A stretch of DNA of 64,000 nucleotides from Candidatus Uhrbacteria bacterium. GTDB lineage: Bacteria > Patescibacteriota > Patescibacteriia > UBA9934. The notes beneath the pieces are model-generated. The model made no database searches. It had not been told where the DNA came from and was given only the letters and a program-made list of their open reading frames with translations. Within the stretch, counting starts at the first letter, position 1, and each line of letters starts with the position of its first letter. Positions 3,478-62,795 of this stretch are shown here, piece by piece. The stretch is taken from NCBI GenBank assembly GCA_003453595.1, contig DMOG01000026.1, positions 6,567 to 70,566 of the forward strand. The letters run 5' to 3'. Both the position numbers and the translations under genes were made by a program.

Positions 3478-3738
3478 ATGTGGTATTTCTATATCCTACA
3501 AAGTCAGAAGGATTTAAATTATTTCTACAAAGGATCTACCGGCGATTTGCGAGCAAGATTCACACAACACAATGATGGCGAAGTTGAATCCACGAAACCG
3601 AGATGTCCTTGGCGGCTGGTTTACTATGAAGCTTATATCTCAGAAAAATCTGCAAGGTTGCGAGAAAAATCTGTAAAACAAAGTGGGTCAATCTCAATTC
3701 CGTTATTGAAGAGAGTAAAAGAAAGTTTGAATAATTAG
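3478..3738 (+). CDS. GIY-YIG nuclease superfamily protein (UPF0213/YhbQ-like); the ORF extends upstream to 3427
   Basis: Has 'YFYILQS...YKGSTGDLRARFTQHNDG...RPWRLVYYEAY...REK', which matches the GIY-YIG motifs (GIY...YIG, R, H-N, E). Confidence 0.75.
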   Translation: MWYFYILQSQKDLNYFYKGSTGDLRARFTQHNDGEVESTKPRCPWRLVYYEAYISEKSARLREKSVKQSGSISIPLLKRVKESLNN

Positions 3739-4067: not shown

Positions 4068-4312
4068 CCAGAAACTAAAGTTGAAGACTGTCAAAGAACT
4101 ACCGAGAATTATTTTATGAGTAAGATTGAAGAATAATAGTTCGCACCTCGCTCATGAGCCCCTGCCATGTAGAACGCTTCCTAGACGGGGAGCGTTTTGC
4201 TATTGAAGAAAACAGTAATTTTTGCGTAATACTAATAAAAAGCAAGACGCACCCGAGGACGGCGACGAGTACGTCTGCCGTCACGCGGGTGCGTGAGCGA
4301 GTGTGCCAGACC

Positions 4313-4906
4313 CTATCGGATCATGGCGTGGTTGTTCCAGAACTCCACCGAGGCGAGGTAGGCCTCGCGGTTGAGGGCGACGCCGCTGCCGCCCTCCTCC
4401 TTACCCAGTGCGTTGCGCATCATGGTGATGGGGGGCATGGGGTCCTCGGCGGGGTTGAGGCCGGCGTTGATGGAGACGATGCCCCACTCGGCGTCGGGTA
4501 CATCGCGCTCCATGTTCGGCGTCTGGTCGGCTTCCTCCTCCAGTGCCTCGCGGTTGTAGAGGATGATGTCGAGCCACTCCGCCTGCGGCGCCTTCAACCC
4601 CTCGAACCAGCGGGTCAGCACCGGCAGCTCACCCTCGCGCCGCGCCTCGTAGCCGGAGCGCAGCAGGTGTGCGTTGTCGGGGGTGATGGCCGCGATGGGG
4701 GCCGTGGTGGTTGTGGTGTTGCGGACGAAGAGGTGCTTGCAAAACGGCGCGTAGCCGTCCACCAGCATCTCGCCCGCCTCGAGCGCCGCATTGGCGATCT
4801 CGACGAGCTCCTCGGCGGTCATCCCAACGATGCGGGTGCCAGCGAAGTTCTTGTTGGCAAAGTGGCGGCCGAGGGCGAACTTGGTCATTCCGATGGTGTT
4901 GCGCAT
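4313..4906 (-). CDS. Hypothetical protein encoded in a high-GC island (about 62% GC); start assigned at MRNTIG with a GGAGG RBS
   Basis: A long ORF in a high-GC segment. A GGAGGCACC sequence sits directly upstream of ATG 4904-4906 on the minus strand. The overlapping plus-strand ORF 4154-4969 is judged a GC-induced shadow ORF. Confidence 0.55.
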   Translation of the reverse strand: MRNTIGMTKFALGRHFANKNFAGTRIVGMTAEELVEIANAALEAGEMLVDGYAPFCKHLFVRNTTTTTAPIAAITPDNAHLLRSGYEARREGELPVLTRWFEGLKAPQAEWLDIILYNREALEEEADQTPNMERDVPDAEWGIVSINAGLNPAEDPMPPITMMRNALGKEEGGSGVALNREAYLASVEFWNNHAMIR

Positions 4907-5180
4907 GGTGCCTCCATGAAGTTGGCCCGGATGCCTCCGGACGTGTCGACTTCGACACGATTCGGTTAGACGTTTGATACAATCTCGCGTCGCCTGCTTT
5001 ATAGGTTGGCACCTACAAATCAGGAAAAACGAGAAAAGCCAGTAACTGGATTCGTTCAAATAAAGAGAATAAGCGCAAATACCGGCGTTCTGTGGTTACC
5101 GTTACCCTTTGTGTGCTTGGATACCATAAATCTCAAGCATTAGGACAGCCCTGCTTGCAGGGTGTTTTTTTAATTATTTT

Positions 5181-6335: not shown

Positions 6336-6555
6336 AGAGATTTATTAATTAACGCGAAATAATAGCACAAAAACGCGGTTTTGTCAATCACAAAACCTAA
6401 TCTTTACTATAAATAATGTACTATAAATAATTGACAAAAAGCCTTATTTAGACTACACTTCTCGAGTTGTACTAAGGGATAGCCATGCGTTCCCCGACTA
6501 TTTTAAAAACTTAAGCCTGTACATCGAGTTATCACAACAGTGGAAGCCTCATAGC

Positions 6556-6596
6556 AACCACCCCCCACCCCTCCTTAGAAAAGGAGGGGAGTCGAG
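6556..6596. repeat. Copy of the dispersed palindromic repeat (AACCACCCCCCACCCCTCCTTAGAAAAGGAGGGGAGTCGAG) in the 5' leader of the DEAD-box helicase gene
   Basis: Matches the family consensus CCCCTCCTT-loop-AAGGAGGGG. Confidence 0.6.
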
Positions 6597-11405: not shown

Positions 11406-11423
11406 GATCTTGAAAAGAATGTG

Positions 11424-11475
11424 CGGTCAGGCCTTTACCCGTTACTTTTTAACGGATAAAGGCCTGACCGCATTG
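11424..11475. terminator. Long hairpin (stem about 22 bp) GCGGTCAGGCCTTTACCCGTTA / TAACGGATAAAGGCCTGACCGC between two minus-strand genes
   Basis: An inverted repeat with one mismatch, seen in the sequence. Confidence 0.5.
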
Positions 11476-12012: not shown

Positions 12013-12070
12013 AGCTACCTCCAGTGAATGGACCATATAAAGTGCCTGAAAACAGGGGTTTTGTCAAGGA

Positions 12071-19194: not shown

Positions 19195-19365
19195 TCGGTC
19201 TCTCCCCCTTTTACAAGGGGGGAGTGGGCTGTGCCCTTCGTAGCCCAGAGGGCGAAAAAGGGAGGGGGTTAATATAGCTTCCGCCTTCCGGAATAACCAC
19301 CCCTAGCCCCTCCTTAAAAAGGAGGGGGAACCAAGTATTCCTAATCCCAATCTCCTCAATCCCCT
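19195..19365. repeat. Cluster of palindromic repeat elements (CTCTCCCCCTTTTACAAGGGGGGAG; GGGCTGTGCCCTTCGTAGCCCAGAGGGC; AGGGAGGGGGTTAATATAGCTTCC; AACCACCCCTAGCCCCTCCTTAAAAAGGAGGGGG) at the left edge of high-GC island B
   Basis: Several hairpin-forming units are shared with the clusters at 30690-30925 and 33230-33375. Confidence 0.65.
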
Positions 19366-19729
19366 CCCAACCTACTCCCCCAAAATTCCCCATTATTCGC
19401 CCAATTTTGTCGCTTTACACTTGACAAAATCGCTTTTTTATGTTATATTTCTCCGTTCGCATAAAGGCAGAAAGAGCCTAAAATGCGAGTTCTTTTCCAC
19501 TTTGTCATCCCCTGGCTTGACCCTCCTATGCCTGCAAGGCTACGGAAGGGCTAGCCAGAGGATCCACCGACAGAAAATTTGCTGGATTCCTGCTTTCGCA
19601 GGAATGACAAAAAAATCTAGTTCTACAAAGCCCCGCCGGGCGAGGTCAAGTTCGACCTTGTCTGGCATCTGTTCGAAAACACCGGCCCAAAAGGCCACCA
19701 ACGCCCTCAAAAAGGGCAAGGAGGCCGAA

Positions 19730-20452
19730 ATGGCCGAAGAGAAGAAAAACGGGAAGCGTCAGGGCCCAGCCCTGTTCCTCTATCGCGGTCGAAAGGAGTG
19801 CGAAGAGCACCCCCTGACCGCGGACGAGCAGACCCTGGCCGACGCCCTGCGCGCCATGGCCACCATGGCCAACCAGGATCCGGCCGTCATGGCCAAGGTC
19901 CTGGAGATCGCCAAGGCCGCCCGTGCCCAGACCGAGCAGGCCCAGCTCAGCTGGTTGCTCGAGAACAAGCCGGACCAACTGGTCTACAAGGCCAAGTACG
20001 ATGTCCGACGCTTCCTCCAGCCCACGGACATGGCCTGCCAGGCCGTACTCGAGGCGGCGGGCAAGTCCGGGATATACCGCAAGTGGCGCGAAGGCGACAC
20101 CTGGAAGGACTCCGGGACCTTCCCCTACCGGTACGAGCTGGACAAAAAGACTGGCATGATCCGGCTCTCGTCCAACCTCGTCGCGGCAGCCCGCGTGATG
20201 TACTTCATCGCGGGTAGTCAGAAGAAGGGCGTCCGCATGTCCTTCGCCGAGACCGGTGACCGGCTGGTCGCTCTGGGTGCCCTGACCCAGAAGCAGCTGG
20301 CGGACATCCGCAAGCAAGCCGGTCCGCTGGCCGTCAAGGCCGGTGGCTCGGAGCAGGAACTCGAATTCCGACCGACAGCCGGGCGCCAGTTGGCGCAGGC
20401 CAAGGGAGGTGGCCTCACCGCCACCATGGCCGAGATGGCCGGCAAGGGCTAG
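19730..20452 (+). CDS. Ala-rich hypothetical protein in high-GC island B (about 63% GC); start assigned at MAEEKK with an AAGGAGG RBS
   Basis: A strong SD lies 6 nt upstream of ATG 19730. The opposite-strand ORFs here are GC shadows. Confidence 0.55.
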   Translation: MAEEKKNGKRQGPALFLYRGRKECEEHPLTADEQTLADALRAMATMANQDPAVMAKVLEIAKAARAQTEQAQLSWLLENKPDQLVYKAKYDVRRFLQPTDMACQAVLEAAGKSGIYRKWREGDTWKDSGTFPYRYELDKKTGMIRLSSNLVAAARVMYFIAGSQKKGVRMSFAETGDRLVALGALTQKQLADIRKQAGPLAVKAGGSEQELEFRPTAGRQLAQAKGGGLTATMAEMAGKG

Positions 20453-20594
20453 ACCACTTCCCGCGTGCAGGACACAATCGTTGAGACCAACTACCCCAGA
20501 GTCTCCGATTGCCTGTACGCGGGTCACGCAGAGTTTATGATGCGAATCATCATAAGTTCTGAGTGACCTGAAAATTTGAGAGAGATTATTAAAA

Positions 20595-20635
20595 AACACT
20601 TTAGATTTGTTTATGGCAAATCTAAGGTGTTTTTA
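20595..20635 (+). terminator. Intrinsic terminator (15-bp stem AACACTTTAGATTTG / CAAATCTAAGGTGTT followed by TTTT)
   Basis: Read directly from the sequence. Confidence 0.6.
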
Positions 20636-20883
20636 CACAGCAACCTGGAGGTTGATGGATTTCTTCTGACAATCATTTAATGTTATCAGGAGGATTTGGA
20701 ACCTCAAGTTCTAGGACCTGGCCTTGGCTAGCTCCCAGTACACACCCGAGGTTCCTCGGGGCATATTTCTTCGGAAGTCACTGCCCCACATGTTCCTAGC
20801 TAGTCTAGGAGCTCTACATCACCTCCAGATTGCTGTGCCTAAAAAACACGCATTCCAAAAACCCGCACACCCAGGAGAGAAGA

Positions 20884-21467
20884 TGACGCAGTTTGTATCC
20901 GACCGGAACGGTCGCGTCGTGGTCGGGGCCTCCTGCCCCGACATCGGCGAGCTCGGCCTGGCCAACCTGTACGACGACGGAGACGAGGTTGCCCAGTCGT
21001 ACGACCCCCTGCGGCGGTGCAAGCCGCTCGTCGACGAAGTCGATGAGGACTGCCTCGCGCTCGAAGAGATCAACCTCGACGAGGCGCAAGCCCCGTGGTG
21101 GTATGACTTCTGCGATGAGCGCGAGGCGATCGAGCCCGACGAAGACGATGCCCCGACCGAGGCCACCCTGCCGGCCGACGCGGACAACGACGACGACCTC
21201 GACGAGCTCGACGCCATGGCCGAGCATGTCGCCAAGGGTTTCGACATGGAGATCCTGGAGGAACGCGCGTTGCGTGCCCACCTCCAGGACAGAGATCCCG
21301 GCCGCCAGCCGGCCAACAAGGGGGGGAGCTGGATCCATCGGCGCCCCCGGCAGTGGGTCGTGGCTCGTGGCCACGACTCCATCCTGCAGGCCACGCCCCG
21401 TCGGACGCCCAAGGCGTTCTGCGAGGCCGAGCGGCTCGCCGACATCCTCGCCGAGGCCACGGCCTAG
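20884..21467 (+). CDS. Acidic (Asp/Glu-rich) hypothetical protein in high-GC island B; start assigned at MTQFVS with an AGGAGAGAAG RBS
   Basis: The ORF has an SD and is followed by a 24-bp perfect palindrome CCCCCGACACAGCTGTGTCGGGGG at 21490-21513. Confidence 0.5.
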
Positions 21468-21529
21468 TCGCGGACTCGACCTACTATGCCCCCGACACAG
21501 CTGTGTCGGGGGCGTTGCGCGTTCTAAAT

Positions 21530-21594
21530 GGGGTCAGGTCTTTACTCGGAACACCTCATATCGATTTGGGTGTTCCGAGTAAAGACCTGACCCC
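21530..21594. repeat. Long-stem hairpin element, copy 1 (26-bp arms GGGGTCAGGTCTTTACTCGGAACACC / GGTGTTCCGAGTAAAGACCTGACCCC around a 13-nt loop)
   Basis: A perfect inverted repeat. The same arms recur at 49939-50003 with a different loop. Confidence 0.8.
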
Positions 21595-21598
21595 ATCT

Positions 21599-26507: not shown

Positions 26508-26592
26508 TTCGCGAAACTAAGTCAGTTAGACTTAGACACAGAGACTTAGACATTTTGTCTAAGTCTCGAAGCACTTTAGCTTGATTTTATTG
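26508..26592. repeat. Left flanking repeat of the IS200-like element (two hairpins: CTAAGTC-agtta-GACTTAG and GACTTAGACA-ttt-TGTCTAAGTC, plus CGAAGCACTTTAGCTTGATTTTATTG)
   Basis: A near-identical copy lies at 27370-27449 in direct orientation. Confidence 0.75.
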
Positions 26593-26638
26593 ATTTTTTT
26601 TTATTTTGTATAATCCTTTTCAGCTATATTTCAATAGA

Positions 26639-27369: not shown

Positions 27370-27449
27370 GTGTCTTAGTCAATTTGACTTAGACATAGAG
27401 ACTTAGACAAAATGTCTAAGTCTCGAAGCACTTTAGCTTGATTTTATTG
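27370..27449. repeat. Right flanking repeat of the IS200-like element (GACTTAGACA-aaa-TGTCTAAGTC hairpin; the loop is inverted relative to the left copy)
   Basis: A direct sequence match to 26508-26592. Confidence 0.75.
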
Positions 27450-27454
27450 GGTTT

Positions 27455-28285
27455 CTATTTTCGCGGAGATTCTTTGCTGCGGTATTTATAAAAAAACTTT
27501 ATGGCACTATTTATCTGAATCCAAGTAAATTTATTGAACATTTGTTGCAAAAGCCCGCCGTCAGCGCTAGCTCGGCGGTGGTAGTGAATCATGTGTGCAT
27601 TTGGATAATACACAACTTTGTGTCCGTGTTCCCAAAATCGGCGACACAAATCATTATCTTCGTAATACATGAAAAATCGCTCATCAAAACTGCCGACTTC
27701 ATCCAAGGCAGTTTTGCGCGTAAACAAGGCCGCGCCAATTAGTGAATCAACCTCCATCTGTTGATCATGGCTTTGATCCATCATCAAATAATCCTCAATC
27801 GCTTGCTTACCAACTCCAAACTTTCCTAAAAATGTTCGACGATATGCTGGCACCATTAAAGTTGGAGACCGATAACATGAATACTGCAAACTTCCGTCTG
27901 GATTACGCAATTGCGGACCACACATTCCCACCTCTGGATTTGCGTCCATAAACTCCAGCATTGTTTCCAACGACTCTGGCTGGATCACAATATCTGGATT
28001 AAAAATCAGTACATAACGCCCACGCGCCACATCTATCCCCCTATTCATAGCTGAGCCAAATCCAACATTACGCTCCAGCGGAATATGACGAACCTGTGGA
28101 AACTCAGCGCGCGCCATTTCTCCAAATCCAGCCCCTGGATTGTTATCAACCACAATAATTTCAAAACCAAGCTTTGGTGCAGCTCGTCGAATACTATCAA
28201 GCGTTTGGCGAATAAGATACTTTTCAAATGTATGGACAATGATAATCGACAAGTCCAGTTGTTGGGCCTTATCTGACATAGGCAC
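27455..28285 (-). CDS. Glycosyltransferase family 2
   Basis: Has 'IIVVDNNPGAGF...' and 'FNPDIV', the GT2 DxD-like region. Confidence 0.75.
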   Translation of the reverse strand: MPMSDKAQQLDLSIIIVHTFEKYLIRQTLDSIRRAAPKLGFEIIVVDNNPGAGFGEMARAEFPQVRHIPLERNVGFGSAMNRGIDVARGRYVLIFNPDIVIQPESLETMLEFMDANPEVGMCGPQLRNPDGSLQYSCYRSPTLMVPAYRRTFLGKFGVGKQAIEDYLMMDQSHDQQMEVDSLIGAALFTRKTALDEVGSFDERFFMYYEDNDLCRRFWEHGHKVVYYPNAHMIHYHRRASADGGLLQQMFNKFTWIQINSAIKFFYKYRSKESPRK

Positions 28286-29329: not shown

Positions 29330-29700
29330 GATTGTCGAGGAGGCCAACCCCCCACTTCTCAGTTCGATCAAATTCGAAAAGATCTCTCCCCTTCTTCACT
29401 AAAGTTACGAAGGGCCCATCGAAGTTTGATACGAAGTTGGGCTAGGCGTCGAGATGGAGAGACTTATTCCCCACTTCGAACGAAGAGAGAAGTCTTCTCG
29501 ATGAAATCTATCGTCGCTCTGCTCCTCGGGATGGGAAATAGAAGTCGAGATAGGACAAGACTCATTCCCCACTTCGAACGAAGAGAGAAGTCTTCTCGAG
29601 AAGATCTCTCGTCGCTCTGCTCCTCGAGATGGGGAAAAAGAAGTCGAGAGATGGGAAATGCACTCCTCGACTCCTCGCGTAAACGCTCGGTCGCTCGGAA
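29330..29700. repeat. Tandem repeat array with a period of about 96-99 bp, with units beginning at 29448, 29544 and 29643 (partial) plus degenerate upstream copies; each unit contains small palindromes (TTCGAACGAA, GAGAAGTCTTCTC)
   Basis: Unit alignment was seen directly, e.g. GTCGAGAT(G/A)G...TTCCCCACTTCGAACGAAGAGAGAAGTCTTCTCGA...CGTCGCTCTGCTCCTCG(G/A)GATGGG. Confidence 0.75.
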
Positions 29701-29802
29701 TGACGGCATATGGAATACAAATATATAAAAAGCCGTCAAAAGCGAACACCCCCATGACCGAAGTCTTGGGGGTGACGGAAGGGGGTTGAGAGAGGCCGCC
29801 GT

Positions 29803-30504
29803 CTACATGAAGTAGTACCAGGCGTCGCAGCCCTCCTCGGGGGTGGTGGCGGAGGTGCCGGTGCTCCAGCCGAGCGACTGGACGCCGGACAGGCCGTCGG
29901 TGGTGGTGTCGATGGTCTCGTCCGAGAAGTAGAACTGACCGGCCAGCCCGCAACTGGTCCCGTCCAGGTTCGACGAGGCGTACGAGTACGCACCGTCGTC
30001 CACCCGCTCGACGTTGAGCTTCAGCGAGTAGAACTCGCTGTCGCAGTCGAACTCGCCCTCGACCCACGCCGCGTTGGTCGCGGTGCCGACGGCGTTGCCG
30101 TTGCCCCAGGAGGAGCAGACAGCGTTGTCACCGGCGTCGTAGGCGATGACCCAGAGGGACATCGCGTCATGCGACTGGACACCCCAGTACCCGAGGTACC
30201 AAGTGTCGGCGTCGGCATCGGCGTCGGCATCGGCGTCGGCATCGGCGTCGGCATCGGCGTCCGCGTCCGCATCCGCATCGGCGTCGGCGTCCGCGTCCGC
30301 ATCGGCGTCCGCGTCGGCATCCGCGTCGGTGTCGCTGTCGGCATCGGCGTCGGTGTCCGCGTCCTCTTCCCCGTCGCCGGGGTTGAGGTCACGATCGCCG
30401 TCGTCGGCGACGTAGCCGGTGTCGACGTCGTCGCGGTCGCGGGGCTGGGACAGGTCGGTGCAGCCGACGAGGGCTGCGATCATGGTGATCAGGAAATACC
30501 GCAT
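29803..30504 (-). CDS. Lipoprotein with a (Asp-Ala)n low-complexity repeat, in high-GC island C
   Basis: Has a lipobox ALVGC-TDLS, a long DADADA... run encoded by the GCATCGGCGTCG hexamer microsatellite (about 30200-30345), and a Trp/Gly-rich C-terminal domain. GC is about 65%. Confidence 0.6.
   Translation of the reverse strand: MRYFLITMIAALVGCTDLSQPRDRDDVDTGYVADDGDRDLNPGDGEEDADTDADADSDTDADADADADADADADADADADADADADADADADADADADADTWYLGYWGVQSHDAMSLWVIAYDAGDNAVCSSWGNGNAVGTATNAAWVEGEFDCDSEFYSLKLNVERVDDGAYSYASSNLDGTSCGLAGQFYFSDETIDTTTDGLSGVQSLGWSTGTSATTPEEGCDAWYYFM
30200..30345. repeat. Hexanucleotide microsatellite (GCGTCGGCATCG)n inside the lipoprotein gene, encoding (DA)n
   Basis: Read directly. 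The shadow ORFs on the plus strand (SASASA..., GIGVGIGV...) are artefacts of this repeat. Confidence 0.8.
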
Positions 30505-30689
30505 TTTCTTTCTCCGATTTTGGCCCTTTCGAGCCGGGGGGTGGAAGGCCTTTCGGCCGTTTTTTGAAGGTGTGACAGTCGGGATTGAACCAACATGTCA
30601 ACAGAGCAGGATATCACAAAATAGGGGTTTTGTCAAGGGGTTGGGTTGTAAAATGCACTAAAACCAGCCATTTTTGGCTGGTTTTTGAG

Positions 30690-30925
30690 GTTTTGATAGG
30701 CAACCACCCCACACCCCTCCTTGGGAAGGAGGGGAATCGAGACTCGGTCTCTCCCCCTTAGTAAGGGGGTCTTTTGCACATCATCTATTGACAAATCTGG
30801 CAAAATGGGCTAAGGTTCAGCGTTCATTATCAAAGAAGCGGAAGCCTCAACAACCACCCCTCCTCCTTCGCACAAGGCTACGGAGGACTATCGCAATTCC
30901 TCCTTGGGAAAGGAGGGGAGCCTGA
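30690..30925. repeat. Two clusters of the palindromic repeat family between the divergent island-C lipoprotein genes (GATAGGCAACCACCCCACACCCCTCCTTGGGAAGGAGGGGAATCGAGACTCGGTCTCTCCCCCTTAGTAAGGGGG; ...CAAGGCTACGGAGG...TTCCTCCTTGGGAAAGGAGGGGAGC)
   Basis: Matches the family consensus and sub-units also found at 19195-19365 and 33230-33375. Confidence 0.7.
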
Positions 30926-31092
30926 GCCAAAAAGGAAAAAACTCGGCTTTTACAATATCTGCACAAAATCGTGAAGATATTATACAAGCCGAGTTCCGAT
31001 TCCCGAAACCGGCCCGTGCCCGTCCCTCAATCCCCTTTGCGGGGCGGAGCGGGCATCACCCCCAAAGGCGGAGACCCCGCCAAGGAGGCGCC

Positions 31093-31620
31093 ATGCGCAA
31101 CCTGATGTGTCTGATCACCATCCTGCTGGCCTCGGCCTGCACGGATCTGTCCGGAAACCAGAACGGCGAGGAGACCTACGTCCCGTCCATGTCGTCCGAC
31201 GACATGGACAGCGATGGCCTGGTCGACGGCTACGACTCCGACGAGATCGTCGGCCCCATCGCCAGCTACCCGACGGAGCTCTGGGTGAACGCTGGCGCCC
31301 TGTCCTTCCCCTGGATGGGTGAGGAGATGTCCTTCCAGTGCCGCGACCACAACGGCCGGGTGCTGGACTTCGCCTGGCAGTACTGGTACAACGGCGAGGC
31401 CACCCCCGCCAACACCTGGTTCGTCGCCTACATCGACGACCGGGCCGGCGAAGGAGACTGGCTCTGCGCCTTCACCCGCAACGACCGGTCGGTGCTCGAC
31501 ATCACCGTGTCCAACGACCCCCTGGTCTGGACGCACGGCGGCGTCTGCATCTACCAGGCCAACAACGGCGTCTACCAGGCGCCGGGCAACAACTCCTGCG
31601 ACGACATCCGAGGCCTCTAG
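31093..31620 (+). CDS. Lipoprotein, hypothetical, in high-GC island C; start assigned at MRNLMC with a CAAGGAGG RBS
   Basis: Has a lipobox LLASAC-TDLS, which is the same C-TDLS start as the divergent (DA)n lipoprotein. It contains Trp and Cys pairs, and GC is about 64%. Confidence 0.6.
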   Translation: MRNLMCLITILLASACTDLSGNQNGEETYVPSMSSDDMDSDGLVDGYDSDEIVGPIASYPTELWVNAGALSFPWMGEEMSFQCRDHNGRVLDFAWQYWYNGEATPANTWFVAYIDDRAGEGDWLCAFTRNDRSVLDITVSNDPLVWTHGGVCIYQANNGVYQAPGNNSCDDIRGL

Positions 31621-31699
31621 CCTCGACCGTCGCCCAATCCTTGAACCCCCGACAGCTCAGCTGAGTATCGGGGGTTCTGTGCGTTTAGGTTATAGAACT

Positions 31700-31812
31700 T
31701 GATAGGCAACCACCCCCCCCACCCCTCCTTGGGAAGGAGGGGAGACCGAGGTGCGGGGATCGCGTGATAGGCAACCACCCCTAACCCCTCCTTGGGAAGG
31801 AGGGGTGGTTAG
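31700..31812. repeat. Two tandem copies of GATAGGCAACCACCCC-N-CCCCTCCTTGGGAAGGAGGGG; the second copy overlaps and encodes the last about 10 codons of rfbD
   Basis: Sequence identity to the family was seen. The reverse complement of the repeat translates to ...NHPSFPRRG*, matching the rfbD ORF C-terminus. Confidence 0.75.
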
Positions 31813-32656
31813 ATAAGAACTCTGCTAGTGCTTCGGTGCGGGGGCGGAGTTTTGGGAACTTTGTGTTTGCTAGTGGCGAGTAGTGTGGACATTTTGCCAG
31901 TCGGGGAAAATCACTTCTTGGGCATGGTCGATAGTTTTCTGTGATTCCCATGGCTTCAAAAACTTCTTTGGCAAATCCGTAAACACTGACAGGCTCACCT
32001 TCGTTAACTAGGTGATAGATGCCAGGACAATAGTCTTTTTCCATTAACTCCAGTACGGCGCGAGCTGCGTCCAAAGCGTAGGTTGGTAAACCATATTCAT
32101 CGTCAGCGATCTTTAAGTCTGGCAAATCACGGTTTAAACGAAGCATGATGTCGATAAAGCCTTCTTTGCCACTCTCCCCTGTAGCCTGATTACCAAACAG
32201 TTTAACAACTCGACAAATAAAGGTTTTATCACAAGCTTGCAAAGCCAATCTTTCCCCTTCAAGCTTTGTTTCACCGTATTTTGAAATTGGATTTGGAGTG
32301 TCATCCTCTTGATAATAATCCCCTTTTTCCCCATCAAAAACATAGTCAGTACTAAAATGCACAAACCTAGCGTGGACAATCTGAGCGGCCTTGGCAAGAT
32401 TCTCTGGTCCTTTGGCATTGATCTTCATGGCCAACTCAAAGATCTCTGGCTCTTCAACTTTATCGACAAGATTGTAAGCAGCGGCATTGATAATCACCTC
32501 TGGTTTCTTGTCTTGAACAAAGCTCAAAACTGATTCTATGTCTGTGATATCAAGATCTTTTCGAGTAGCTGAAATAACCTTATGACCAGCAGATTCAAAA
32601 ACCTCAACCAAGTATTGGCCAAGCATTCCTTGTGAACCTGTGATCATTGTTTTCAT
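31781..32656 (-). CDS. rfbD: dTDP-4-dehydrorhamnose reductase
   Basis: Has a Rossmann motif 'MITGSQGMLG', and its position in a dTDP-rhamnose operon and a size of about 290 aa fit RmlD. Confidence 0.75.
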   Translation of the reverse strand: MKTMITGSQGMLGQYLVEVFESAGHKVISATRKDLDITDIESVLSFVQDKKPEVIINAAAYNLVDKVEEPEIFELAMKINAKGPENLAKAAQIVHARFVHFSTDYVFDGEKGDYYQEDDTPNPISKYGETKLEGERLALQACDKTFICRVVKLFGNQATGESGKEGFIDIMLRLNRDLPDLKIADDEYGLPTYALDAARAVLELMEKDYCPGIYHLVNEGEPVSVYGFAKEVFEAMGITENYRPCPRSDFPRLAKCPHYSPLANTKFPKLRPRTEALAEFLSNHPSFPRRG

Positions 32657-32681
32657 AAAAGTGGTAAAGGTTAGTGACCAT

Positions 32682-33227
32682 TTAGAACCTTTTTTTCAAA
32701 AACTCCGCCAAGGTCATGGCCTGTGAGTCGCGGGTTGATAAAATTGGATCGCCATCGAGGGGCCACTTAATATTTATTTCCGGATCATTCCAAGCAATGC
32801 CGGCATCGAGATCTGAGTTAAAAGTATTGGAAACTTTGTATTGAAGTTCGCAATCAGTAAATGCATAAAAGCCATGAGCAAAACCTTCTGGCACAAAAAT
32901 CATTTTTTTGTTTTCTTCAGAAAGCTCAAGTCCAAACCATTGTTTGTAAGTAGGTGAACCAGCTCGCAAATCTACAGCCACATCCCAAAGTCGTCCGCAA
33001 GTACAGCGAACAAGTTTGGCCATTGGCTTTGGATCTTGTTGAAAGTGAAGACCACGAAGAACACCTTTAGCTGATTTGGAATGATTGTCTTGAACAAAGA
33101 TTGTATTCAATCCCAACGCATCAAACTTATCCTTGTTATAAGACTCAAAGAAAAAACCCCGATCATCACCATGAACTTCTGGCTCAATGATTATTAAATC
33201 TGGAATTGTGGTTTTTATTGTTTTCAT
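32682..33227 (-). CDS. rfbC: dTDP-4-dehydrorhamnose 3,5-epimerase
   Basis: Has 'DDRGFFFESYNK', 'LRGLHFQ', and 'FVPEGFAHGF', the RmlC cupin motifs. Confidence 0.85.
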   Translation of the reverse strand: MKTIKTTIPDLIIIEPEVHGDDRGFFFESYNKDKFDALGLNTIFVQDNHSKSAKGVLRGLHFQQDPKPMAKLVRCTCGRLWDVAVDLRAGSPTYKQWFGLELSEENKKMIFVPEGFAHGFYAFTDCELQYKVSNTFNSDLDAGIAWNDPEINIKWPLDGDPILSTRDSQAMTLAEFLKKRF

Positions 33228-33229
33228 GG

Positions 33230-33375
33230 GGGGAAATAGATTAAGAAAGGAGGGAAAATCGAGACTCGGTCTCTCCCCCTTAGTAAGGGGGAGTAGGAGG
33301 GGGTTAATATAGCTTCCACTTTATAAAATAACCTCCCCTAACCCCTCCTTAAAAAGGAGGGGAACCGGGTTTGAG
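33230..33375. repeat. Cluster of palindromic repeat units between rfbC and rfbB (…ATCGAGACTCGGTCTCTCCCCCTTAGTAAGGGGGAG…GGGGTTAATATAGCTTCC…CCCCTAACCCCTCCTTAAAAAGGAGGGG)
   Basis: Shares sub-units with the clusters at 19195-19365 and 30690-30790. Confidence 0.7.
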
Positions 33376-33386
33376 ACAGTTTATTA

Positions 33387-34397
33387 TCAAGTCAATCTAC
33401 CAACATTTTCTTCGTACCATTTTCGGTAGCCTGAGCTTTGTTTGATTGGCTTCCACCATGACTCATTTTCCTGATACCAACGGATCATTTGCTCAAGACC
33501 TTGTTCAAAAGTAACTTGCGGCTTCCAGTTAAGCTCTGTGCTTATTTTAGAATAATTGATTGCATAACGACGGTCCTGCCCTGGTCGATCTTGGGTAAAC
33601 TTTAGCATTTCTTCGTGCGCGCCCATAGCTTTGATAACTGCCCTGGCAGTTTGGGCAATGCTAAGTTCAGCGTCTCCGCCCATCATGTATGTGTGACCAA
33701 TTTGACCTCGTTCAATAATAGCCAATATACCAAGCGCATGATCACGGGCAGTAATCCAGTCACGGATTTGTCGACCATCACCCTGCACACTGATTGGACG
33801 GTTTTCCATGAGGTTAGTAATAGCAATGGCCAAAAACTTCTCAGGATATAAATAGGGACCATAGTTATTGGTGCAGTTTGAGATTGTTCCGCGCAAAGCA
33901 TGAGAATGAACTGCGGCGCGCACAAGATGATCTGAAGCGGCTTTGGTGGCACTATATGGATTACGAGGATCGTAGGGAGTAGCTTCATGGAACTTTGGAT
34001 CATCTGGACCAAGCGAACCAAAAACTTCGTCAGTACTAACATGATGAAAACGCTTGCCGTGTCTTACACAAGCATCAATTAGTCTTTGTACTCCTAAAAT
34101 GTTGGTTAAAATAAAAGGCTCATTATCCATGAGCGATCGATCAACATGAGTTTCTGCCGCAAAGTTTATAACAGCATCAACCTCTGAAACTAAAGTATTT
34201 ACCAAATCTTTGTCTGTGATTGAACCGTAGACAAACCGGTATCGAGGATGAGTCTGGATATCCAAGGTATTTGCTAGATTACCAGCATAGGTAAGGGCAT
34301 CCAAATTGATAACTTGCCAATCAGGCCGTTCAGCAAAGATCACACGAATAAAGTGCGATCCAATAAATCCACACCCTCCTGTGACTAATACTTTCAT
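33387..34397 (-). CDS. rfbB: dTDP-glucose 4,6-dehydratase
   Basis: Has 'MKVLVTGGCGFIGSHF', a YxxxK-type SDR, and a size of about 336 aa. Confidence 0.85.
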   Translation of the reverse strand: MKVLVTGGCGFIGSHFIRVIFAERPDWQVINLDALTYAGNLANTLDIQTHPRYRFVYGSITDKDLVNTLVSEVDAVINFAAETHVDRSLMDNEPFILTNILGVQRLIDACVRHGKRFHHVSTDEVFGSLGPDDPKFHEATPYDPRNPYSATKAASDHLVRAAVHSHALRGTISNCTNNYGPYLYPEKFLAIAITNLMENRPISVQGDGRQIRDWITARDHALGILAIIERGQIGHTYMMGGDAELSIAQTARAVIKAMGAHEEMLKFTQDRPGQDRRYAINYSKISTELNWKPQVTFEQGLEQMIRWYQENESWWKPIKQSSGYRKWYEENVGRLT

Positions 34398-34421
34398 AGT
34401 ACCTTTTACTTTACATTCTTT

Positions 34422-34988
34422 TTACTTGAGATGCAATCCTTGCTCAATAATCTCCAAAACTCGAGGTTTTGCCAATTGCCAGCCGGCTAACATTGATCCA
34501 TCGGTTATTTCTCCTCCAGCCACCATATCTTCAAACATCTCAGCTGTACAAGAAAGTTGTTCAAACTCTTCGGTTGGATCTTTACGAGCAAATGTTGTGG
34601 CTAATCCATAGGCCACAAACACCCAAACAGTTTCCTGCACCCTACCATTGCTAGGATGGAAAAATCCAATCTTCTCCATGGTGCTTGCTTTCATTTGTGC
34701 TTCCTGAGCAAATTCTTCTGCAGCTGCCTGCTCTAAAGTTTGCCCTTCACCAACTCCACCGTTGGGAAACTCAAGGGTAAACTCATCACTCAAACATCGA
34801 TATTGCTTAACCATGGGCATACTGCCCTCTTCATCAATACCAATAATCACCACTGAGTCTGGAACTTTCAAAAAATAATAATCTGCTTGATTGCCATTTT
34901 GTAGATCAAACACAGCGTGTTCGTAACTTGACCATTTACTTTGCGCCACAGTCTCTTGCGAAACTTTCTTCCATCTTTCTAATGACAT
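34422..34988 (-). CDS. NUDIX hydrolase
   Basis: Has a Nudix-box-like 'GGVGEGQTLEQAAAEEFAQEAQ'. Confidence 0.6.
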   Translation of the reverse strand: MSLERWKKVSQETVAQSKWSSYEHAVFDLQNGNQADYYFLKVPDSVVIIGIDEEGSMPMVKQYRCLSDEFTLEFPNGGVGEGQTLEQAAAEEFAQEAQMKASTMEKIGFFHPSNGRVQETVWVFVAYGLATTFARKDPTEEFEQLSCTAEMFEDMVAGGEITDGSMLAGWQLAKPRVLEIIEQGLHLK

Positions 34989-34991
34989 ATT

Positions 34992-35396
34992 TTAAAGTTC
35001 TTGGCGAATTAATTGAGCCACTTGCGCCAACTCTTCTTGAGATGGTTTTTGTTTAATAAAAGTCCGGGCGTCACCTTCATAACGAGGCATGAAATGAAGA
35101 TGAGTATGAAACACATCCTGCCCGGCATCTTCTCCGTGGTTCATTCCTAAATTATAGCCTGTAGCTCCCAGCGCCTTTAGAATTGCTGGAGCGATCTGAT
35201 AAGTCGTGGTCATGATTGCTAGCGCGTCATCAAGCGATCCTGCTTGCATTATATCTGCATGTTGCTTTGGCACTATCAAAGTATGTCCTTTGCTAACTGG
35301 TCCAATGTCCAAAAAAGCAAAAGTCAAATTATCCTCATAAACCTTATGACAAGGAATCTCACCTTTGATAATTTTACAAAATAGACAATCATTCAT
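34992..35396 (-). CDS. HIT-family (histidine triad) protein
   Basis: Has 'HTLIVPKQH' and the triad 'HTHLHFMPR' (HxHxHxx). Confidence 0.85.
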   Translation of the reverse strand: MNDCLFCKIIKGEIPCHKVYEDNLTFAFLDIGPVSKGHTLIVPKQHADIMQAGSLDDALAIMTTTYQIAPAILKALGATGYNLGMNHGEDAGQDVFHTHLHFMPRYEGDARTFIKQKPSQEELAQVAQLIRQEL

Positions 35397-35414
35397 ATGA
35401 TTATATTAAGGTTA

Positions 35415-35470
35415 ATGGATCCGAGTTCACACTCCCCCTTCCCAAGGGGGAGGTAGAGGGGGTTGCCCAC
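35415..35470. repeat. Palindromic repeat copy (CACTCCCCCTTCCCAAGGGGGAGGTAGAGGGGGTTGCC)
   Basis: A variant of the family core. Confidence 0.55.
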
Positions 35471-35524
35471 TTATTGTAGCGCTTTTTTGACTTTATTCAA
35501 AACTGATTCCAAATCTTCATATAT

Positions 35525-35821
35525 CTAATTATTAATGAAGCGAAGTATTATTAAGCCTTGTTCCACAAAAAAATTATCTCTTATTCGGTCATGCAATTTT
35601 CCACTCTCTTGATAGTGCGAATCACCATCCACTTCGATAACCAATTTCTTCTCAGGGCAATAAAAATCGGCTATATATACTCCTATACCATGTTGCCGAC
35701 GGAACTTTACTCCTAATTGTGATCTGCTCAAATATCTCCAGAGAATCTGCTCTGCTTTTGAACAATCAGACCTTAATTGGCTTCGTTTACTTTTTTGAAT
35801 TCTCTGATTAAAAACTTTCAT
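35525..35821 (-). CDS. DUF559 / Vsr-like endonuclease-domain protein
   Basis: 'AEQILWRYLSRSQLGVKFRRQHGIGVYIADFYCPEKKLVIEVDGDSH' is the DUF559 pattern. The ATG start is at 35819-35821. The upstream GTG-start extension would be encoded by the repeat at 35822-35866. Confidence 0.7.
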   Translation of the reverse strand: MKVFNQRIQKSKRSQLRSDCSKAEQILWRYLSRSQLGVKFRRQHGIGVYIADFYCPEKKLVIEVDGDSHYQESGKLHDRIRDNFFVEQGLIILRFINN

Positions 35822-35866
35822 ATAATAGGCAACCACCCCTACCCCCTCCTTGGGAAGGAGGGGTGC
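35822..35866. repeat. Palindromic repeat copy (TAGGCAACCACCCCTACCCCCTCCTTGGGAAGGAGGGGTGCGC) abutting the DUF559 start
   Basis: Matches the family consensus. Confidence 0.7.
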
Positions 35867-35867
35867 G

Positions 35868-36200
35868 CTAATTATCGGCTTTTAATAAGACAAACGGCAG
35901 CGCAAGTCCGATCAAGGAAATAAAAATTCTGAAATCTCCAAATGTTGTTCCTTCGCGCCAGAGAATGATCATGAGCAATAGTCCGACAAAAATCTTAAAA
36001 ACAATCCACATCAAAGATCTACCCTTTCGCTCTATGGCAACCTGCGCCCACCAAATCCCAAAAACAATGGCTGGAATTAAAATCAAATGAACTGAAAATA
36101 CATAACTAACAAACCCAGGCCTAAGATACTCGCACAACAAAAAGAACCCATAACTAATTACGCTCACTAAAAATCCTGTTTTAGCAATTACATCTTTCAT
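35868..36200 (-). CDS. Small polytopic membrane protein, hypothetical
   Basis: Has three hydrophobic helices and overlaps the upstream gene by 4 nt, suggesting an operon. Confidence 0.45.
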   Translation of the reverse strand: MKDVIAKTGFLVSVISYGFFLLCEYLRPGFVSYVFSVHLILIPAIVFGIWWAQVAIERKGRSLMWIVFKIFVGLLLMIILWREGTTFGDFRIFISLIGLALPFVLLKADN

Positions 36201-37669: not shown

Positions 37670-39394
37670 TTAGTTTTTAATGATTGCGTACAAAGACTCA
37701 TCCCCAACGGTTGCAATCTTACGGAATTGAATATCGTTTTCCGCAAAAACCACTGATTGCAAATGTTCAATATCTGTCTTGGGAAGCGTAATTCCGAAGT
37801 AAAACATTGATGTTTGATCAAGTATCTCAGGAATGGCCTGATAGACATTTTCATCACGCAATGGAGTGATCACAGATCTATCTGGGAATATATACTTGTC
37901 AGCCATGTCAACAATAATTATGCAGTCTGGCGGTGTCTGTTCTAAAACGATCTGCTTTTTTTCAGTGAAAGATTCAAGATTATCATGAGTTTGAATAAAT
38001 CCATCATTTCCCCAGATCACTAACCGAACTGAAAAAAGAAAAACTAAAAAGATAATCAACCAAGGGCCAAAGTCAGCAAAAGGAAAATCCCTTCTTTTTA
38101 ACCATGCTCCGATCTTATCAACGGCAATGCCGGCAAATAATGAACCAAGAACAAATAATGGCAGCCAATAACGCACATAGGAGTTCCCTAAAGTCAAAAT
38201 TGAAGCATCAGGGTTGTCAGTGAATTTCCAGCTTCCATAAACAAATGCCAGCCAAATGCTAAGACCAAAAGTGATAATAAGCAAAGGTCGCCATCCTTTA
38301 TCCTTGAACACAAAAATTATTCCAAGAATTGAAAGTATGCTCATCCATGGATATAGCAGAAATCCATACTGCCAAACATTGCGCAAAATATTCATCTCAT
38401 GAATACCAAACGGGAATAGTACATTTAAAGGCGCAGGCCAAGATTTATCAATATTTGAGTCTTGATAGGCAACCACCCCCGACTCCTCCTTGGGAAGGAG
38501 GGGGGCTTCAGTCTGACTCTGATCTGCGACTGTATATCCAGTCTCTAGCATTGAACCGTATAAAACCTTATTCAATGCCAAAAATGGCAATAGAATCAAG
38601 ACTGCTGAAATTAGAAAAACAAAAACATTCTTTAAAACAAGCTCTTTTCGTTGCCAAAATAAAAATCCCACAACTAAAACTCCGACCCAAACAGCTTCTG
38701 ATGCTCGAAAAGAAATCGCCAACCCAAGCATCAGCCCTGCCAAAAACTCATCTAATATAACAGTTTTCTGCCAATTTGCTTTTATTGGCTGACAAACAAT
38801 GAAATACAAAGCTAGTAACAAAAGTGCAACAAAACCAACATTGTGCATCATTGTTCTGCCTGTGTAATACCAAAAAGCTGGATGAATCATGAGCAACAAT
38901 GCGCCAAAATCCGACAATCTTTCATTCTCAGTTAATCGATATAAAATTTGTTTCCAAGCAAATATTGCCAGAACAGCCAACAATGGAGTGACTAGCGAAA
39001 TACTCCAAGATCCAAAGATAAACGCAAATAAACCAGATAATACAGATAGTCCAAGGAAACTGACTGGAACTATGTATTGGATGCTATCTGTAACCACCCC
39101 CGCCCTTCGCTCTGCAGAGCTTCGGAGCGGCACAGCTAACCACTCCTTAAAAAAGGAGGGGAAACGAGACACAACAATCATGCTCCTTGGATGGACTAAA
39201 TTGGTCCATGAAATACCTTGATATTGTGATTGAATTGCTAAAGTTTGATCTTGAGCAAACTGTAAAGCAAAAACAGCGTTTGCATTCTCATCAGGAGAAT
39301 TAAAAATCATTTCAGATTGAGAATATGCAAAAAATGTAACAGAGAAAAAAAAGAGCAATAATGCCAAACTTCTTAAAACTGTTATTCTGCGCAT
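37670..39394 (-). CDS. GT-C fold glycosyltransferase (ArnT/PMT-like polytopic membrane protein) carrying two in-frame copies of the dispersed repeat
   Basis: Has about 12 TM helices and an N-terminal 'SPDENANAVFA' (DE-type first-loop motif). Repeat copies at 38463-38510 and 39091-39173 are read through in frame (…QTEAPLLPKEESGVVAYQD… and …SSAERRAGVVTD…). Confidence 0.6.
   Translation of the reverse strand: MRRITVLRSLALLLFFFSVTFFAYSQSEMIFNSPDENANAVFALQFAQDQTLAIQSQYQGISWTNLVHPRSMIVVSRFPSFFKEWLAVPLRSSAERRAGVVTDSIQYIVPVSFLGLSVLSGLFAFIFGSWSISLVTPLLAVLAIFAWKQILYRLTENERLSDFGALLLMIHPAFWYYTGRTMMHNVGFVALLLLALYFIVCQPIKANWQKTVILDEFLAGLMLGLAISFRASEAVWVGVLVVGFLFWQRKELVLKNVFVFLISAVLILLPFLALNKVLYGSMLETGYTVADQSQTEAPLLPKEESGVVAYQDSNIDKSWPAPLNVLFPFGIHEMNILRNVWQYGFLLYPWMSILSILGIIFVFKDKGWRPLLIITFGLSIWLAFVYGSWKFTDNPDASILTLGNSYVRYWLPLFVLGSLFAGIAVDKIGAWLKRRDFPFADFGPWLIIFLVFLFSVRLVIWGNDGFIQTHDNLESFTEKKQIVLEQTPPDCIIIVDMADKYIFPDRSVITPLRDENVYQAIPEILDQTSMFYFGITLPKTDIEHLQSVVFAENDIQFRKIATVGDESLYAIIKN
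38463..38510. repeat. Palindromic repeat copy inside the GT-C coding sequence (TGATAGGCAACCACCCCCGACTCCTCCTTGGGAAGGAGGGGGGC)
   Basis: A consensus match. The reading frame is preserved across the insertion. Confidence 0.75.
39091..39173. repeat. Palindromic repeat copy inside the GT-C coding sequence (GTAACCACCCCCGCCCTTCGCTCTGCAGAGCTTCGGAGCGGCACAGCTAACCACTCCTTAAAAAAGGAGGGG)
   Basis: A consensus match. The reading frame is preserved across the insertion. Confidence 0.7.
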
Positions 39395-47536: not shown

Positions 47537-47596
47537 AGGGAATGTGATTAGAAGTTGTAGAGGTGATTAAGGGGAGTTGGAGGGGAACCGCATGTG

Positions 47597-49877: not shown

Positions 49878-49938
49878 AAGTAGATATGTGATTTATGCCT
49901 ATATTTTATCGGATTATAGAAGATATGGCAACCAAGTT

Positions 49939-50003
49939 GGGGTCAGGTCTTTACTCGGAACACCCAAATTGATAAAAGGTGTTCCGAGTAAAGACCTGAC
50001 CCC
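49939..50003. repeat. Long-stem hairpin element, copy 2 (same 26-bp arms as 21530-21594, loop CAAATTGATAAAA)
   Basis: The arms are identical to copy 1. Confidence 0.8.
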
Positions 50004-50018
50004 ATTTGCGCAAAACCA

Positions 50019-62792: not shown

Positions 62793-62795
62793 AAT

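Follow-up and report, generated by a model that had tools for sequence, protein, structure and literature searches.

Why does a stretch of low-GC bacterial DNA contain the same short, GC-rich palindrome again and again, between its genes and even inside one of them? The question is raised by 64 kb of Candidatus Uhrbacteria, a member of the candidate phyla radiation (CPR; Patescibacteria), and this whole 64-kb stretch is referred to here as the window. Our answer, to which we assign a probability of about 0.7, is that the repeats form a Ca. Uhrbacteria subfamily of the class II purine-motif triplex repeats, the kind known as BoxC, PIT, or TM_ECO, and that these repeats are insertion-polymorphic and clustered around DUF559 genes in many phyla. 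Catalogues of BoxC/PIT/TM repeats go back to the 1990s, but the repeats still lack an assigned function, mobility mechanism, or partner protein. What is new is that near-identical architecture and sequence recur from the CPR to Acidobacteriota, Nitrospirota, Bacteroidota, and Gammaproteobacteria, that the modules are able to insert in frame in genes, and that an abundant nuclease gene, filed as a "domain of unknown function", sits within module clusters. Two old questions, namely what spreads the repeats and what DUF559 does, are thereby made directly testable.

Some 15 copies and fragments of a 42-45 nt module occur in the window, and the copy counts and orientations given here rest on 64-85 kb of the source genome. 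A search of the window for the core of the module, CCCCTCCTT-N3/4-AAGGAGGGG, returned exact matches at 6568, 19307, 30714, 31722, 31785, 33342, and 35843, a near-exact match with one mismatch at 38483, and degenerate cores at 30900 and 39143. The number of core matches expected by chance, based on 100 dinucleotide-preserving shuffles of the window, was 0.00-0.01 as compared to the 7-8 exact or near-exact matches observed. A preliminary description of the window, made from its letters alone, had proposed a dispersed family of GC-rich palindromes that appear singly, in tandem pairs, and in composite clusters with companion units; the family is thus real, and all three arrangements were seen. The possibility raised there that the copies are assembly artefacts is unlikely since 25 contigs, drawn from NCBI, JGI, and ENA assemblies, encode the 574-aa protein that holds two of them without any sequence difference. 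The window itself forms part of contig DNJE01000013.1 (Candidatus Uhrbacteria bacterium GW2011_GWD2_41_121). No Rfam family matched the repeats, either at the gathering threshold across the whole window or in a permissive search of 30600-36000.

The layout of the module is best read on its G-rich strand. It consists of a homopyrimidine arm (CCCCTCCTT), a loop of 3-4 nt, a homopurine arm (AAGGAGGGG), a 3-nt turn (TTA, CTA, or GTA), and a G/T strand (GGGGTGGTT), and written as one oligonucleotide it is 5'-CCCCTCCTTCCCAAGGAGGGGTTAGGGGTGGTT-3'. The arms form a Watson-Crick hairpin of 9 bp with the 3-4 nt loop, present in seven exact copies in the window, with a DNA-fold free energy of -10 to -12.6 kcal/mol and a z score of about -2 to -2.6, values in which ViennaRNA leaves triplets out. 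The last segment repeats the purine arm in mirror order, G facing G and A facing T or A, and in the window it follows after a turn of ~3 nt, as in AAGGAGGGG-TTA-GGGGTGGTT. Copies at 30695, 31701, 31766, 35824 (one mismatch), and 38464 carry, on the + strand in all cases, the 5' extension GATAGGCAACCACCCC. This extension contains AACCACCCC, whose complement is a G/T strand mirroring the purine arm, and the module as a whole can therefore be classed as a potential intrastrand triplex. Neither Watson-Crick pairing nor duplication and inversion can produce a mirror repeat of this kind, and it matches the antiparallel purine-motif triplex rule exactly. In a single-stranded module, the last segment would fold back antiparallel onto the hairpin via G*G:C, T*A:T, and A*A:T triplets, which are also the triplets that we scored as compatible, antiparallel to the purine arm, in the comparisons below. 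A G-rich strand of this order can fold as an intrastrand triplex, and folding of the Uhrbacteria sequence is predicted from the mirror rule. The preliminary description had missed that GATAGGCAACCACCCC is, judged by its sequence, not an arbitrary flank but part of the triplex layout, and that two copies lie in frame in a gene.

The companion units belong to the same layout. The companion TCTCCCCCTT-AGT-AAGGGGGAG, at 19202, 30753, 33272, and 35431, represents a variant triplex module that runs in the opposite orientation, the companion GGGGTTAATATAGCTTCC starts with the third strand of the variant module, and GGGCTGTGCCC... is a mini-hairpin placed after the purine arm and ahead of the third strand. 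Each of the clusters at 19202-19328 and 33272-33363 consists of two oppositely oriented units with their third strands inward. In alignment A6, similarity among units begins abruptly at the pyrimidine arm and, in subfamily A, stops after the common extension. This subfamily, which has the loop CCC, reads ...GGGGTGGTTGCCTATCA, and carries the extension GCCTATCA, comprises five copies, including one 5' of a DUF559 gene and one in an open reading frame (ORF).

Whether the mirror strand is more than a peculiarity of one arm sequence can be judged from hairpins whose arms vary. We collected 131 such hairpins beside DUF559 genes, and among them the flank sequence shifts together with the arm sequence. 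After the turn TTA, the arm pairs (pyrimidine/purine) CCCCTCCTT/AAGGAGGGG, CCCTCCCCT/AGGGGAGGG, and CCTCCCCTT/AAGGGGAGG are followed by the third strands GGGGTGGTT, GGGTGGGGT, and GGTGGGGTA, respectively; the pair CCCTCTCC/GGAGAGGG is followed by turn CTA and GGGTGAGG, and the pair CTCCCCCTT/AAGGGGGAG by turn ATTAA and GAGGGGGTT. The mirror strand is perfect in 62 of the 131 and at least 85% compatible in 86, 64 of which have a second loop of 3 nt. Mean compatibility over the 131 was 0.841, as compared to 0.737 ± 0.008 (maximum 0.761) with arms permuted among units and to 0.711 in the parallel (direct) register. Opposite a G of the purine arm there is a G in 509/517 positions, and opposite an A there is T (165), A (67), C (10), or G (6).

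A mirror third strand was also found across phyla. One genome per species was scanned with the hairpin pattern alone, so that the flanks lay outside the pattern, and the resulting set comprises at least 120 loci in at least 120 genomes, with 145 hairpins in 849 kb. The genomes belong to Chlamydiota, several CPR groups, Nitrospirota, Acidobacteriota, Bacteroidota, Planctomycetota, Chloroflexota, Gammaproteobacteria (including Thiomargarita), and others. In 99 of the 145 hairpins listed, a third strand with a compatibility of at least 8/9 lies within 2-6 nt (mode 3 nt), and in a further 32 it lies at 7-44 nt, behind an inserted mini-hairpin; together these make up 90%, whereas random positions in the same loci gave a third-strand match in 1.6%. 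The conserved flanks in these loci are (A)ACC[A/T]CCCC, 2-5 nt upstream, or the complement GGGG[T/A]GGTT downstream. Spread by phages was considered and rejected, as a viral contig search found the 33-nt module in only 4 viral contigs. In a Thiomargarita sp. metagenome-assembled genome (MAG), five 41-nt triplex units stand head-to-tail (locus L069, 7128-7324), with 7 hairpin copies in 8 kb, indicating that modules can expand as tandem arrays.

The layout is that of a known kind of repeat. Class II motifs consist of a pyrimidine arm, a purine arm, and then a reverse-Hoogsteen strand, and an abundant G/C-rich example is TM_ECO, CCCTCNCCC-N3-6-GGGNGAGGG-N3-GGGNGAGGG (Holder et al. 2015, NAR 43:10126, PMC4666352). 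TM_ECO, which was earlier named BoxC (1990s) and PIT element (Hoyne and Maher), occurs 23 times in E. coli K-12 and 3610 times in 262 proteobacterial genomes, is described as always intergenic, and forms a stable triplex as a single strand by circular dichroism and nuclear magnetic resonance (PMC4666352). Our module shares with BoxC/PIT/TM_ECO the 9-nt pyrimidine arm, the 3-6 nt loop, the 9-nt purine arm, the 3-nt loop, and the 9-nt G-rich mirror strand. It is likewise G/C-rich and highly conserved and, within the 64 kb, multi-copy and dispersed, it forms palindromic doublets and adjoins variable DNA, and no transposase is found nearby. (The PIT elements of E. coli reportedly go back to Hoyne et al. 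2000.) The arms themselves, CCCCTCCTT/AAGGAGGGG/GGGGTGGTT, do not match the TM_ECO consensus of CCCTCNCCC/GGGNGAGGG/GGGNGAGGG, and with the same architecture but another arm sequence the module is a variant of the BoxC/PIT/TM kind rather than TM_ECO itself. It further differs from TM_ECO in that it is found in a CPR host and many non-proteobacterial phyla, that its second loop can hold inserted mini-hairpins, and that it is associated with DUF559, whereas the published TM_ECO work gives no associated gene. In contrast to the always intergenic TM_ECO, the copies in the 64 kb are only mostly intergenic; two are intragenic and in frame, and one overlaps, and provides, a stop codon.

The intragenic copies also demonstrate that presence of the module varies among relatives. 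Both lie in ORF 37670..39394 on the minus strand, which encodes a GT39/PMT_2-like (glycosyltransferase-like) membrane protein, the 574-aa protein referred to above. The larger, at 39075..39161 (G-rich strand minus), has two mini-hairpins before the third strand GGGGTGGTT and constitutes an 87-nt (29-codon) in-frame insert that encodes SRFPSFFKEWLAVPLRSSAERRAGVVTDS. Most homologues lack this insert, among them the two closest, at 81-82% identity (alignment A1), and a 61%-identical homologue carries a shorter unit-encoded 17-aa insert, SSSPSSFKEGIGVVIDS, at precisely the same site (A1; DNA alignment A4). The two inserts at this common site measure 87 and 51 nt, both multiples of three, and the pattern requires either repeated insertion there or several precise losses. 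The second copy, a subfamily A unit at 38464..38503 (minus), is in frame and encodes the peptide APLLPKEESGVVAYQ in a hypervariable loop, where relatives have altered or decayed versions. Outside this gene, the subfamily A unit at 31766..31805 (minus) overlaps the 3' end of the RmlD gene (31781..32656, minus) and gives its last seven codons (...PSFPRRG) and stop codon; in a related species (L130), rmlD is immediately followed by a near-identical unit. Finally, a ~440-nt block of unit, DUF559 gene, and unit (35431-35863) is missing from three syntenic relatives, which run from the 110-aa gene to the HIT gene (alignment A2). At the level of these alignments, the comparisons show that the modules are insertion-polymorphic and that some were inserted in frame into coding sequence. 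Peptides of CPR proteins such as PLLPKEG.GVV are repeat-derived and not conserved protein sequence.

This behavior has a precedent in Rickettsia palindromic elements (RPE), which are AT-rich, ~100-150 bp long, unrelated in sequence, and not known to have a triplex-type mirror strand. As with RPE, in-frame palindromic inserts (29 and ~15 codons in ORF 37670..39394) occur in protein genes of a reduced-genome bacterium, and the added peptide is tolerated by the host protein. The module resembles RPE in neither sequence nor size and is therefore not a member, and, unlike RPE, it is intergenic in most of its copies.

The block missing from the three relatives leads to the second part of the reading, the DUF559 gene. 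The gene at 35525..35836 (minus) encodes a predicted Vsr-like PD-(D/E)XK endonuclease of 98-103 aa (Pfam PF04480, E=1.7e-24), a relative of YcjD from E. coli; in profile comparison it matches PDB 3HRL (Neisseria NGO0050, E=1.7e-25), with a weak match to the Vsr-like (EDxHD) homing endonuclease I-Bth0305I (3R3P, E=0.002). The E-x-D-G-x2-H core is kept, with E63, D65, G66, and H69 invariant (alignment A3). Like I-Bth0305I, to whose catalytic domain this profile match refers, DUF559 is encoded by a small, selfish-looking nuclease gene with presence/absence polymorphism. However, I-Bth0305I is encoded in an intron and possesses a further DNA-binding domain, whereas DUF559 genes are free-standing, encode ~120 aa, and are embedded in repeat clusters.

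Two units bracket the gene with their third strands inward. Directly upstream of the start codon is a subfamily A unit (35824..35863, minus), and downstream is a variant unit, CTCCCCCTT-CCC-AAGGGGGAG-GTA-GAGGGGGTT(GCC) (35431..35464, plus). DUF559 genes or remnants are likewise bracketed in Pyrinomonadaceae (L039), Nitrospirales (L040), Rikenellaceae (L062), and Bacteroidetes (L011). In the 849 kb of listed motif loci, all four DUF559 matches lie within 150 nt of a motif, and only ~5% of that DNA is so near. It took targeted tblastn and HMM searches to detect these neighbors, which are too rare for the cut-off of 3 loci in an all-against-all clustering of ORFs ≤1.5 kb from the motif. In the opposite direction, 80 metagenomic DUF559 loci were picked by protein similarity alone, and perfect hairpins with C/T-only arms were counted around the gene. 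The density is 7.65 hairpins/kb in the first 100 nt upstream, 4.3 and 3.6 in the first and second 100 nt downstream, and 0.06 in all sequence >500 nt away. With the control restricted to other intergenic DNA of the same contigs, the density is 4.11/kb within 200 nt on either side versus 0.52/kb, an ~8-fold enrichment. A hairpin lies within 200 nt at 62/80 loci, and a full triplex unit at 46/80. The third strand of upstream units points toward the DUF559 gene in 42 cases and away in 18, and downstream units are mixed. These counts show that the modules cluster tightly around DUF559 genes in many phyla. The link is apparently unreported; our literature search found no report that links DUF559 (ycjD, COG2852) with BoxC-type repeats.

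The E. coli K-12 member of the family, ycjD, has a degenerate hairpin across its stop codon, a TM_ECO copy ~170 nt downstream, and the remnant of a second DUF559 3' end beside it. Of 5426 complete E. coli genomes, ~2080 lack the segment with ycjD and TM_ECO that lies between fabI and sapF in K-12 (L212, 1351040-1351830) or have other DNA in its place. As an empty site, the ycjD locus proved uninformative: O157:H7 has a TetR/RND block instead, with a breakpoint ~40 nt from the TM_ECO copy. In the Nitrospirales MAG, three short DUF559-like fragments (30 aa, 57% identity) recur with a period of ~275 nt (L040, 5256-5891) at a distance of a few kb from its intact DUF559 cassette.

Several observations weigh against the reading of the repeats as triplex repeats of the BoxC/PIT/TM kind clustered around DUF559. 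In E. coli, in vivo dimethyl sulfate footprinting gave no sign of a stable triplex, and the duplex form gave no triplex signals (PMC4666352). Target-site duplications were not seen at the insertion sites, and genome-wide copy number and orientation bias are extrapolations from the 64-85 kb at hand. Moreover, G-rich mirror repeats are also able to form G-quadruplexes. The DUF559 protein of the window lacks the C-terminal helix, being ~20 residues shorter than its relatives, and may be decaying. A DUF559 gene is nearby in only ~3% of the motif loci listed. Where hairpins flank the gene on both sides (28 loci), arm-identical and loop-complementary pairs occur in only 3, although this is above the 0.35 expected, and both third strands point inward in only 14. 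The flanking architecture is therefore too loose for the element to be a clean transposon with terminal inverted repeats, which we reject as a general rule. Lastly, association gives no direction, and nuclease genes and repeats could both collect in permissive gaps.

What the nuclease might do for the repeats can be put forward only tentatively. It is possible, with the odds somewhat against it, that the DUF559 nuclease is the cognate enzyme of this repeat family; we infer this ourselves, as Holder et al. 2015 reported no mobility-related gene near TM motifs (PMC4666352). DUF559 would recognize the folded or duplex module and would either propagate it, as RAYT (REP-associated tyrosine transposase) does for repetitive extragenic palindromic (REP) sequences, or act as a free-standing homing endonuclease whose targets are clusters of modules. 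Non-autonomous products of this activity would be seen as the solo modules and the doublets that lack a gene, and modules would fold when the G-rich strand is transiently single-stranded, as at replication. In the window, the ~9-10 solo units have their G-rich strand on the minus strand throughout, and the GC skew of the + strand is negative throughout, by which the G-rich strand would have leading-strand sequence and serve as the lagging-strand template. This orientation, which rests on ~10 copies in a single region whose genes mostly lie on the minus strand as well, fits folding-dependent behavior. The broader proposal, that DUF559 proteins are the cognate Vsr-like nucleases of BoxC/PIT/TM repeats across nearly all bacterial phyla and form with them a pan-bacterial selfish system, is more doubtful again. 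If true, these small nucleases would recognize a folded triple-helical or mirror-repeat module and either propagate it or home into it, and nuclease and repeat would be an analogue of RAYT and REP built on a PD-(D/E)XK nuclease and non-B DNA, and able to insert in frame in minimal CPR genomes. Three readings of the DUF559 link remain: that the nuclease propagates the units, that a homing endonuclease lives in unit clusters, or that solo units are cassette debris.

The last of these readings has a counterpart among the alternatives to the main one. The modules could be cis-acting parts of DUF559 cassettes, such as untranslated-region or expression-control hairpins, and the solo copies the debris of repeated invasion, decay, and deletion. 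The peak of hairpin density ≤100 nt upstream of the start codon agrees with this, as do the DUF559 remnants between inverted units in L011 and L062 and the second 3'-end remnant beside ycjD. Solo subfamily A copies also match the upstream unit of the cassette up to 2 nt before the ATG, a match that we likewise count against debris as the sole source. Nevertheless, we consider this explanation unlikely: solo copies are clean 45-87 nt inserts without a DUF559 coding trace, the two in-frame copies in a conserved gene need very precise deletions, units outnumber DUF559 genes ~14 to 1 in the window and 23 to 1 in E. coli K-12, and bare units also form tandem arrays, as in Thiomargarita. An ordinary REP/REPIN family, mobilized in trans by a RAYT encoded elsewhere, would make the mirror flank a RAYT recognition part and DUF559 a bystander. 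The preliminary description had suggested that the family may be REP- or MITE-like (MITE, miniature inverted-repeat transposable element), and the likeness holds for the palindromic 20-45 nt units, the solo copies, inverted doublets, and tandem array, the presence/absence of copies, the uniform orientation in the window, and the homogeneity of subfamilies within a genome; with REP/REPIN and RAYT the system further shares many repeats per one small nuclease gene that is itself flanked by repeats. REP families occur widely (PMC3733652). A conserved GTAG or CGTC tetranucleotide at one palindrome end marks a REP (PMC3733652), yet the foot of our hairpin has neither and runs into NTA/NTG and then the G/T mirror strand, a strand missing from REPs. 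The cognate RAYT that the preliminary description had suggested looking for was not found: there is no Y1 (HUH) transposase among the called genes of the 85-kb contig, and no gene, transposase or other, recurs beside the motif in the listed 120 loci (ORFs ≤1.5 kb, 3-locus cut-off). The associated protein is instead the PD-(D/E)XK Vsr-like DUF559, and its enrichment is strong and holds in both search directions. RAYT-REP pairs are lineage-specific, whereas the module is nearly identical across many phyla. For MITEs, the filled and empty sites show no target-site duplication, and no insertion sequence parent was found. A RAYT-driven family thus has a slim chance of being the right description.

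The modules may also act as RNA, that is, as hairpins that sequester the Shine-Dalgarno (SD) or anti-SD sequence, as mRNA-stabilizing 3' structures, or as attenuators in the glycosylation operon, with a mirror flank that is incidental or a G-quadruplex. Most units do lie in short gaps between co-oriented genes with the G-rich strand as the mRNA-sense strand, the purine arm contains AAGGAGG, the hairpin has the stability given above, and variants such as GGGGAGGGTTAGGGTGGGG match the canonical G-quadruplex pattern. However, the spacing to the next start codon is variable, and copies are also found within an ORF and between divergent genes. The AGGAGG that the preliminary description had noted as SD-like on both strands is better seen as a by-product of the homopurine arms, sequestered in the 9-bp stem. 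The attenuator proposed there finds no support either: no T/U-run follows the hairpin on either strand (TTAGGGGTGGTT on minus, AATCGAGAC/AGACCGAG on plus), and earlier work on E. coli PIT elements saw neither promoter nor terminator activity (PMC4666352). A G-quadruplex needs four G-tracts and not mirror symmetry, whereas the mirror register scored well above the direct one. An action as RNA is therefore quite improbable as the explanation of the family. It is just as improbable that repeats and DUF559 gene are unrelated passengers that gather in permissive, recombination-prone intergenic hot spots. Such spots are suggested by E. coli, where triplex-motif loci are rearranged more than control loci (PMC4666352), by the variable architecture around DUF559, and by the other small selfish genes and repeats of the window (a GIY-YIG ORF at 3427-3738 and a 68-nt hairpin repeat). 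But the ~8-fold enrichment persists in the intergenic-only control on the same contigs, the GIY-YIG gene has no units nearby, and the four DUF559 matches in the listed motif loci all fall within the ~5% of sequence nearest to a motif. We therefore retain the triplex-repeat reading with its DUF559 association.

The remaining copies in the window vary in completeness. With the G-rich strand on minus, a solo triplex unit, CCCCTCCTT-TTCT-AAGGAGGGG-TGG-GGGGTGGTT, lies between divergent genes at 6550..6589. The first inward doublet has as its left half a variant unit on plus, CTCCCCCTT-TTAC-AAGGGGGGAG (19202..19271), with a mini-hairpin (GGGCTGTGCCC...GGGC) before the third strand GAGGGGGTTA, and as its right half a subfamily B unit with loop TTT on minus (19290..19328), at the left border of high-GC island 2. 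In the rmlB-rmlC gap, the second doublet pairs the variant unit CTCCCCCTT-AGT-AAGGGGGAG-TAG-GAGGGGGTT (33272..33305, plus) with a subfamily B unit (33326..33363, minus), and is the DUF559-less counterpart of 35431-35863. Within high-GC island 3, a solo subfamily A unit on minus (30695..30734; loop CCC, 3' extension GCCTATCA) is followed by a hairpin-only variant copy on plus without a third strand, TCTCCCCCTT-AGT-AAGGGGGTC (30753..30775). A degenerate unit on minus (30850..30919) reads AACCACCCC, an inserted hairpin, and then CTCCTT-GGGA-AAGGAGGGG, and the subfamily A unit at 31701..31742 (minus), the first of a tandem direct pair, marks the right border of island 3. The fragment that the preliminary description had placed near 47565 was confirmed by direct reading at 47569..47587 (plus) as the purine arm AAGGGGAG, TTG, and the mirror strand GAGGGGAA, without a pyrimidine arm.

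The GC content against which these copies stand out was given in the preliminary description as 37%; it is indeed low, at about 40% overall, but ranges from ~0.37 to 0.43 rather than being flat, and it is interrupted by three high-GC islands (0.53-0.62) at 4154-4969, ~19400-21500, and ~29400-31650 that contain orphan ORFs with no Pfam match. Copies had been said to sit at the island borders, and islands 2 and 3 do abut triplex units, whereas island 1 (4154-4969) does not. Units beside variable or foreign-looking DNA fit the published association of such motifs with instability (PMC4666352). The preliminary description had suggested that the repeats may mediate insertion of the islands; the orphan ORFs pointed to no donor, no relative with an empty island site was found, and the island protein encoded at 19604-20452 has only two relatives among 5.8 billion proteins. 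Island 3 also contains a 79-nt direct repeat (91%; 29460-29538 and 29558-29636) and a period-12 GAC/GCC tandem repeat (30169-30415) that encodes an Asp/Ala-rich stretch of ORF 29803-30504 (minus).

Further features were noted in the window. The GIY-YIG nuclease ORF (3427-3738, plus; Pfam E=3.7e-12) directly follows tRNA-Trp (3261-3334) and precedes island 1, without flanking triplex units. A restriction-modification pair at 61677-63755, with a GC content of 0.29-0.31, consists of an NgoFVII-like endonuclease and a C5 cytosine methyltransferase. The second repeat family is a near-perfect 68-nt hairpin (TGGGGTCAGGTCTTTACTCGGAACACC...GGTGTTCCGAGTAAAGACCTGACCCCA) with identical arms at 21529-21596, at the right border of island 2, and at 49938-50005, and with a diverged copy at 11422-11473. 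An 86-nt repeat (87% identity) with a GACTTAGAC palindrome occurs at 26517-26602 and 27374-27459 in the glycosyltransferase region, beside minus-strand genes of 203 and 276 aa. Finally, the 21-nt motif AAAA(T/C)AGGGGTTTTGTCAAGG appears three times in intergenic DNA (6369-6389, 12049-12069, and 30618-30638) and may be a promoter or operator.

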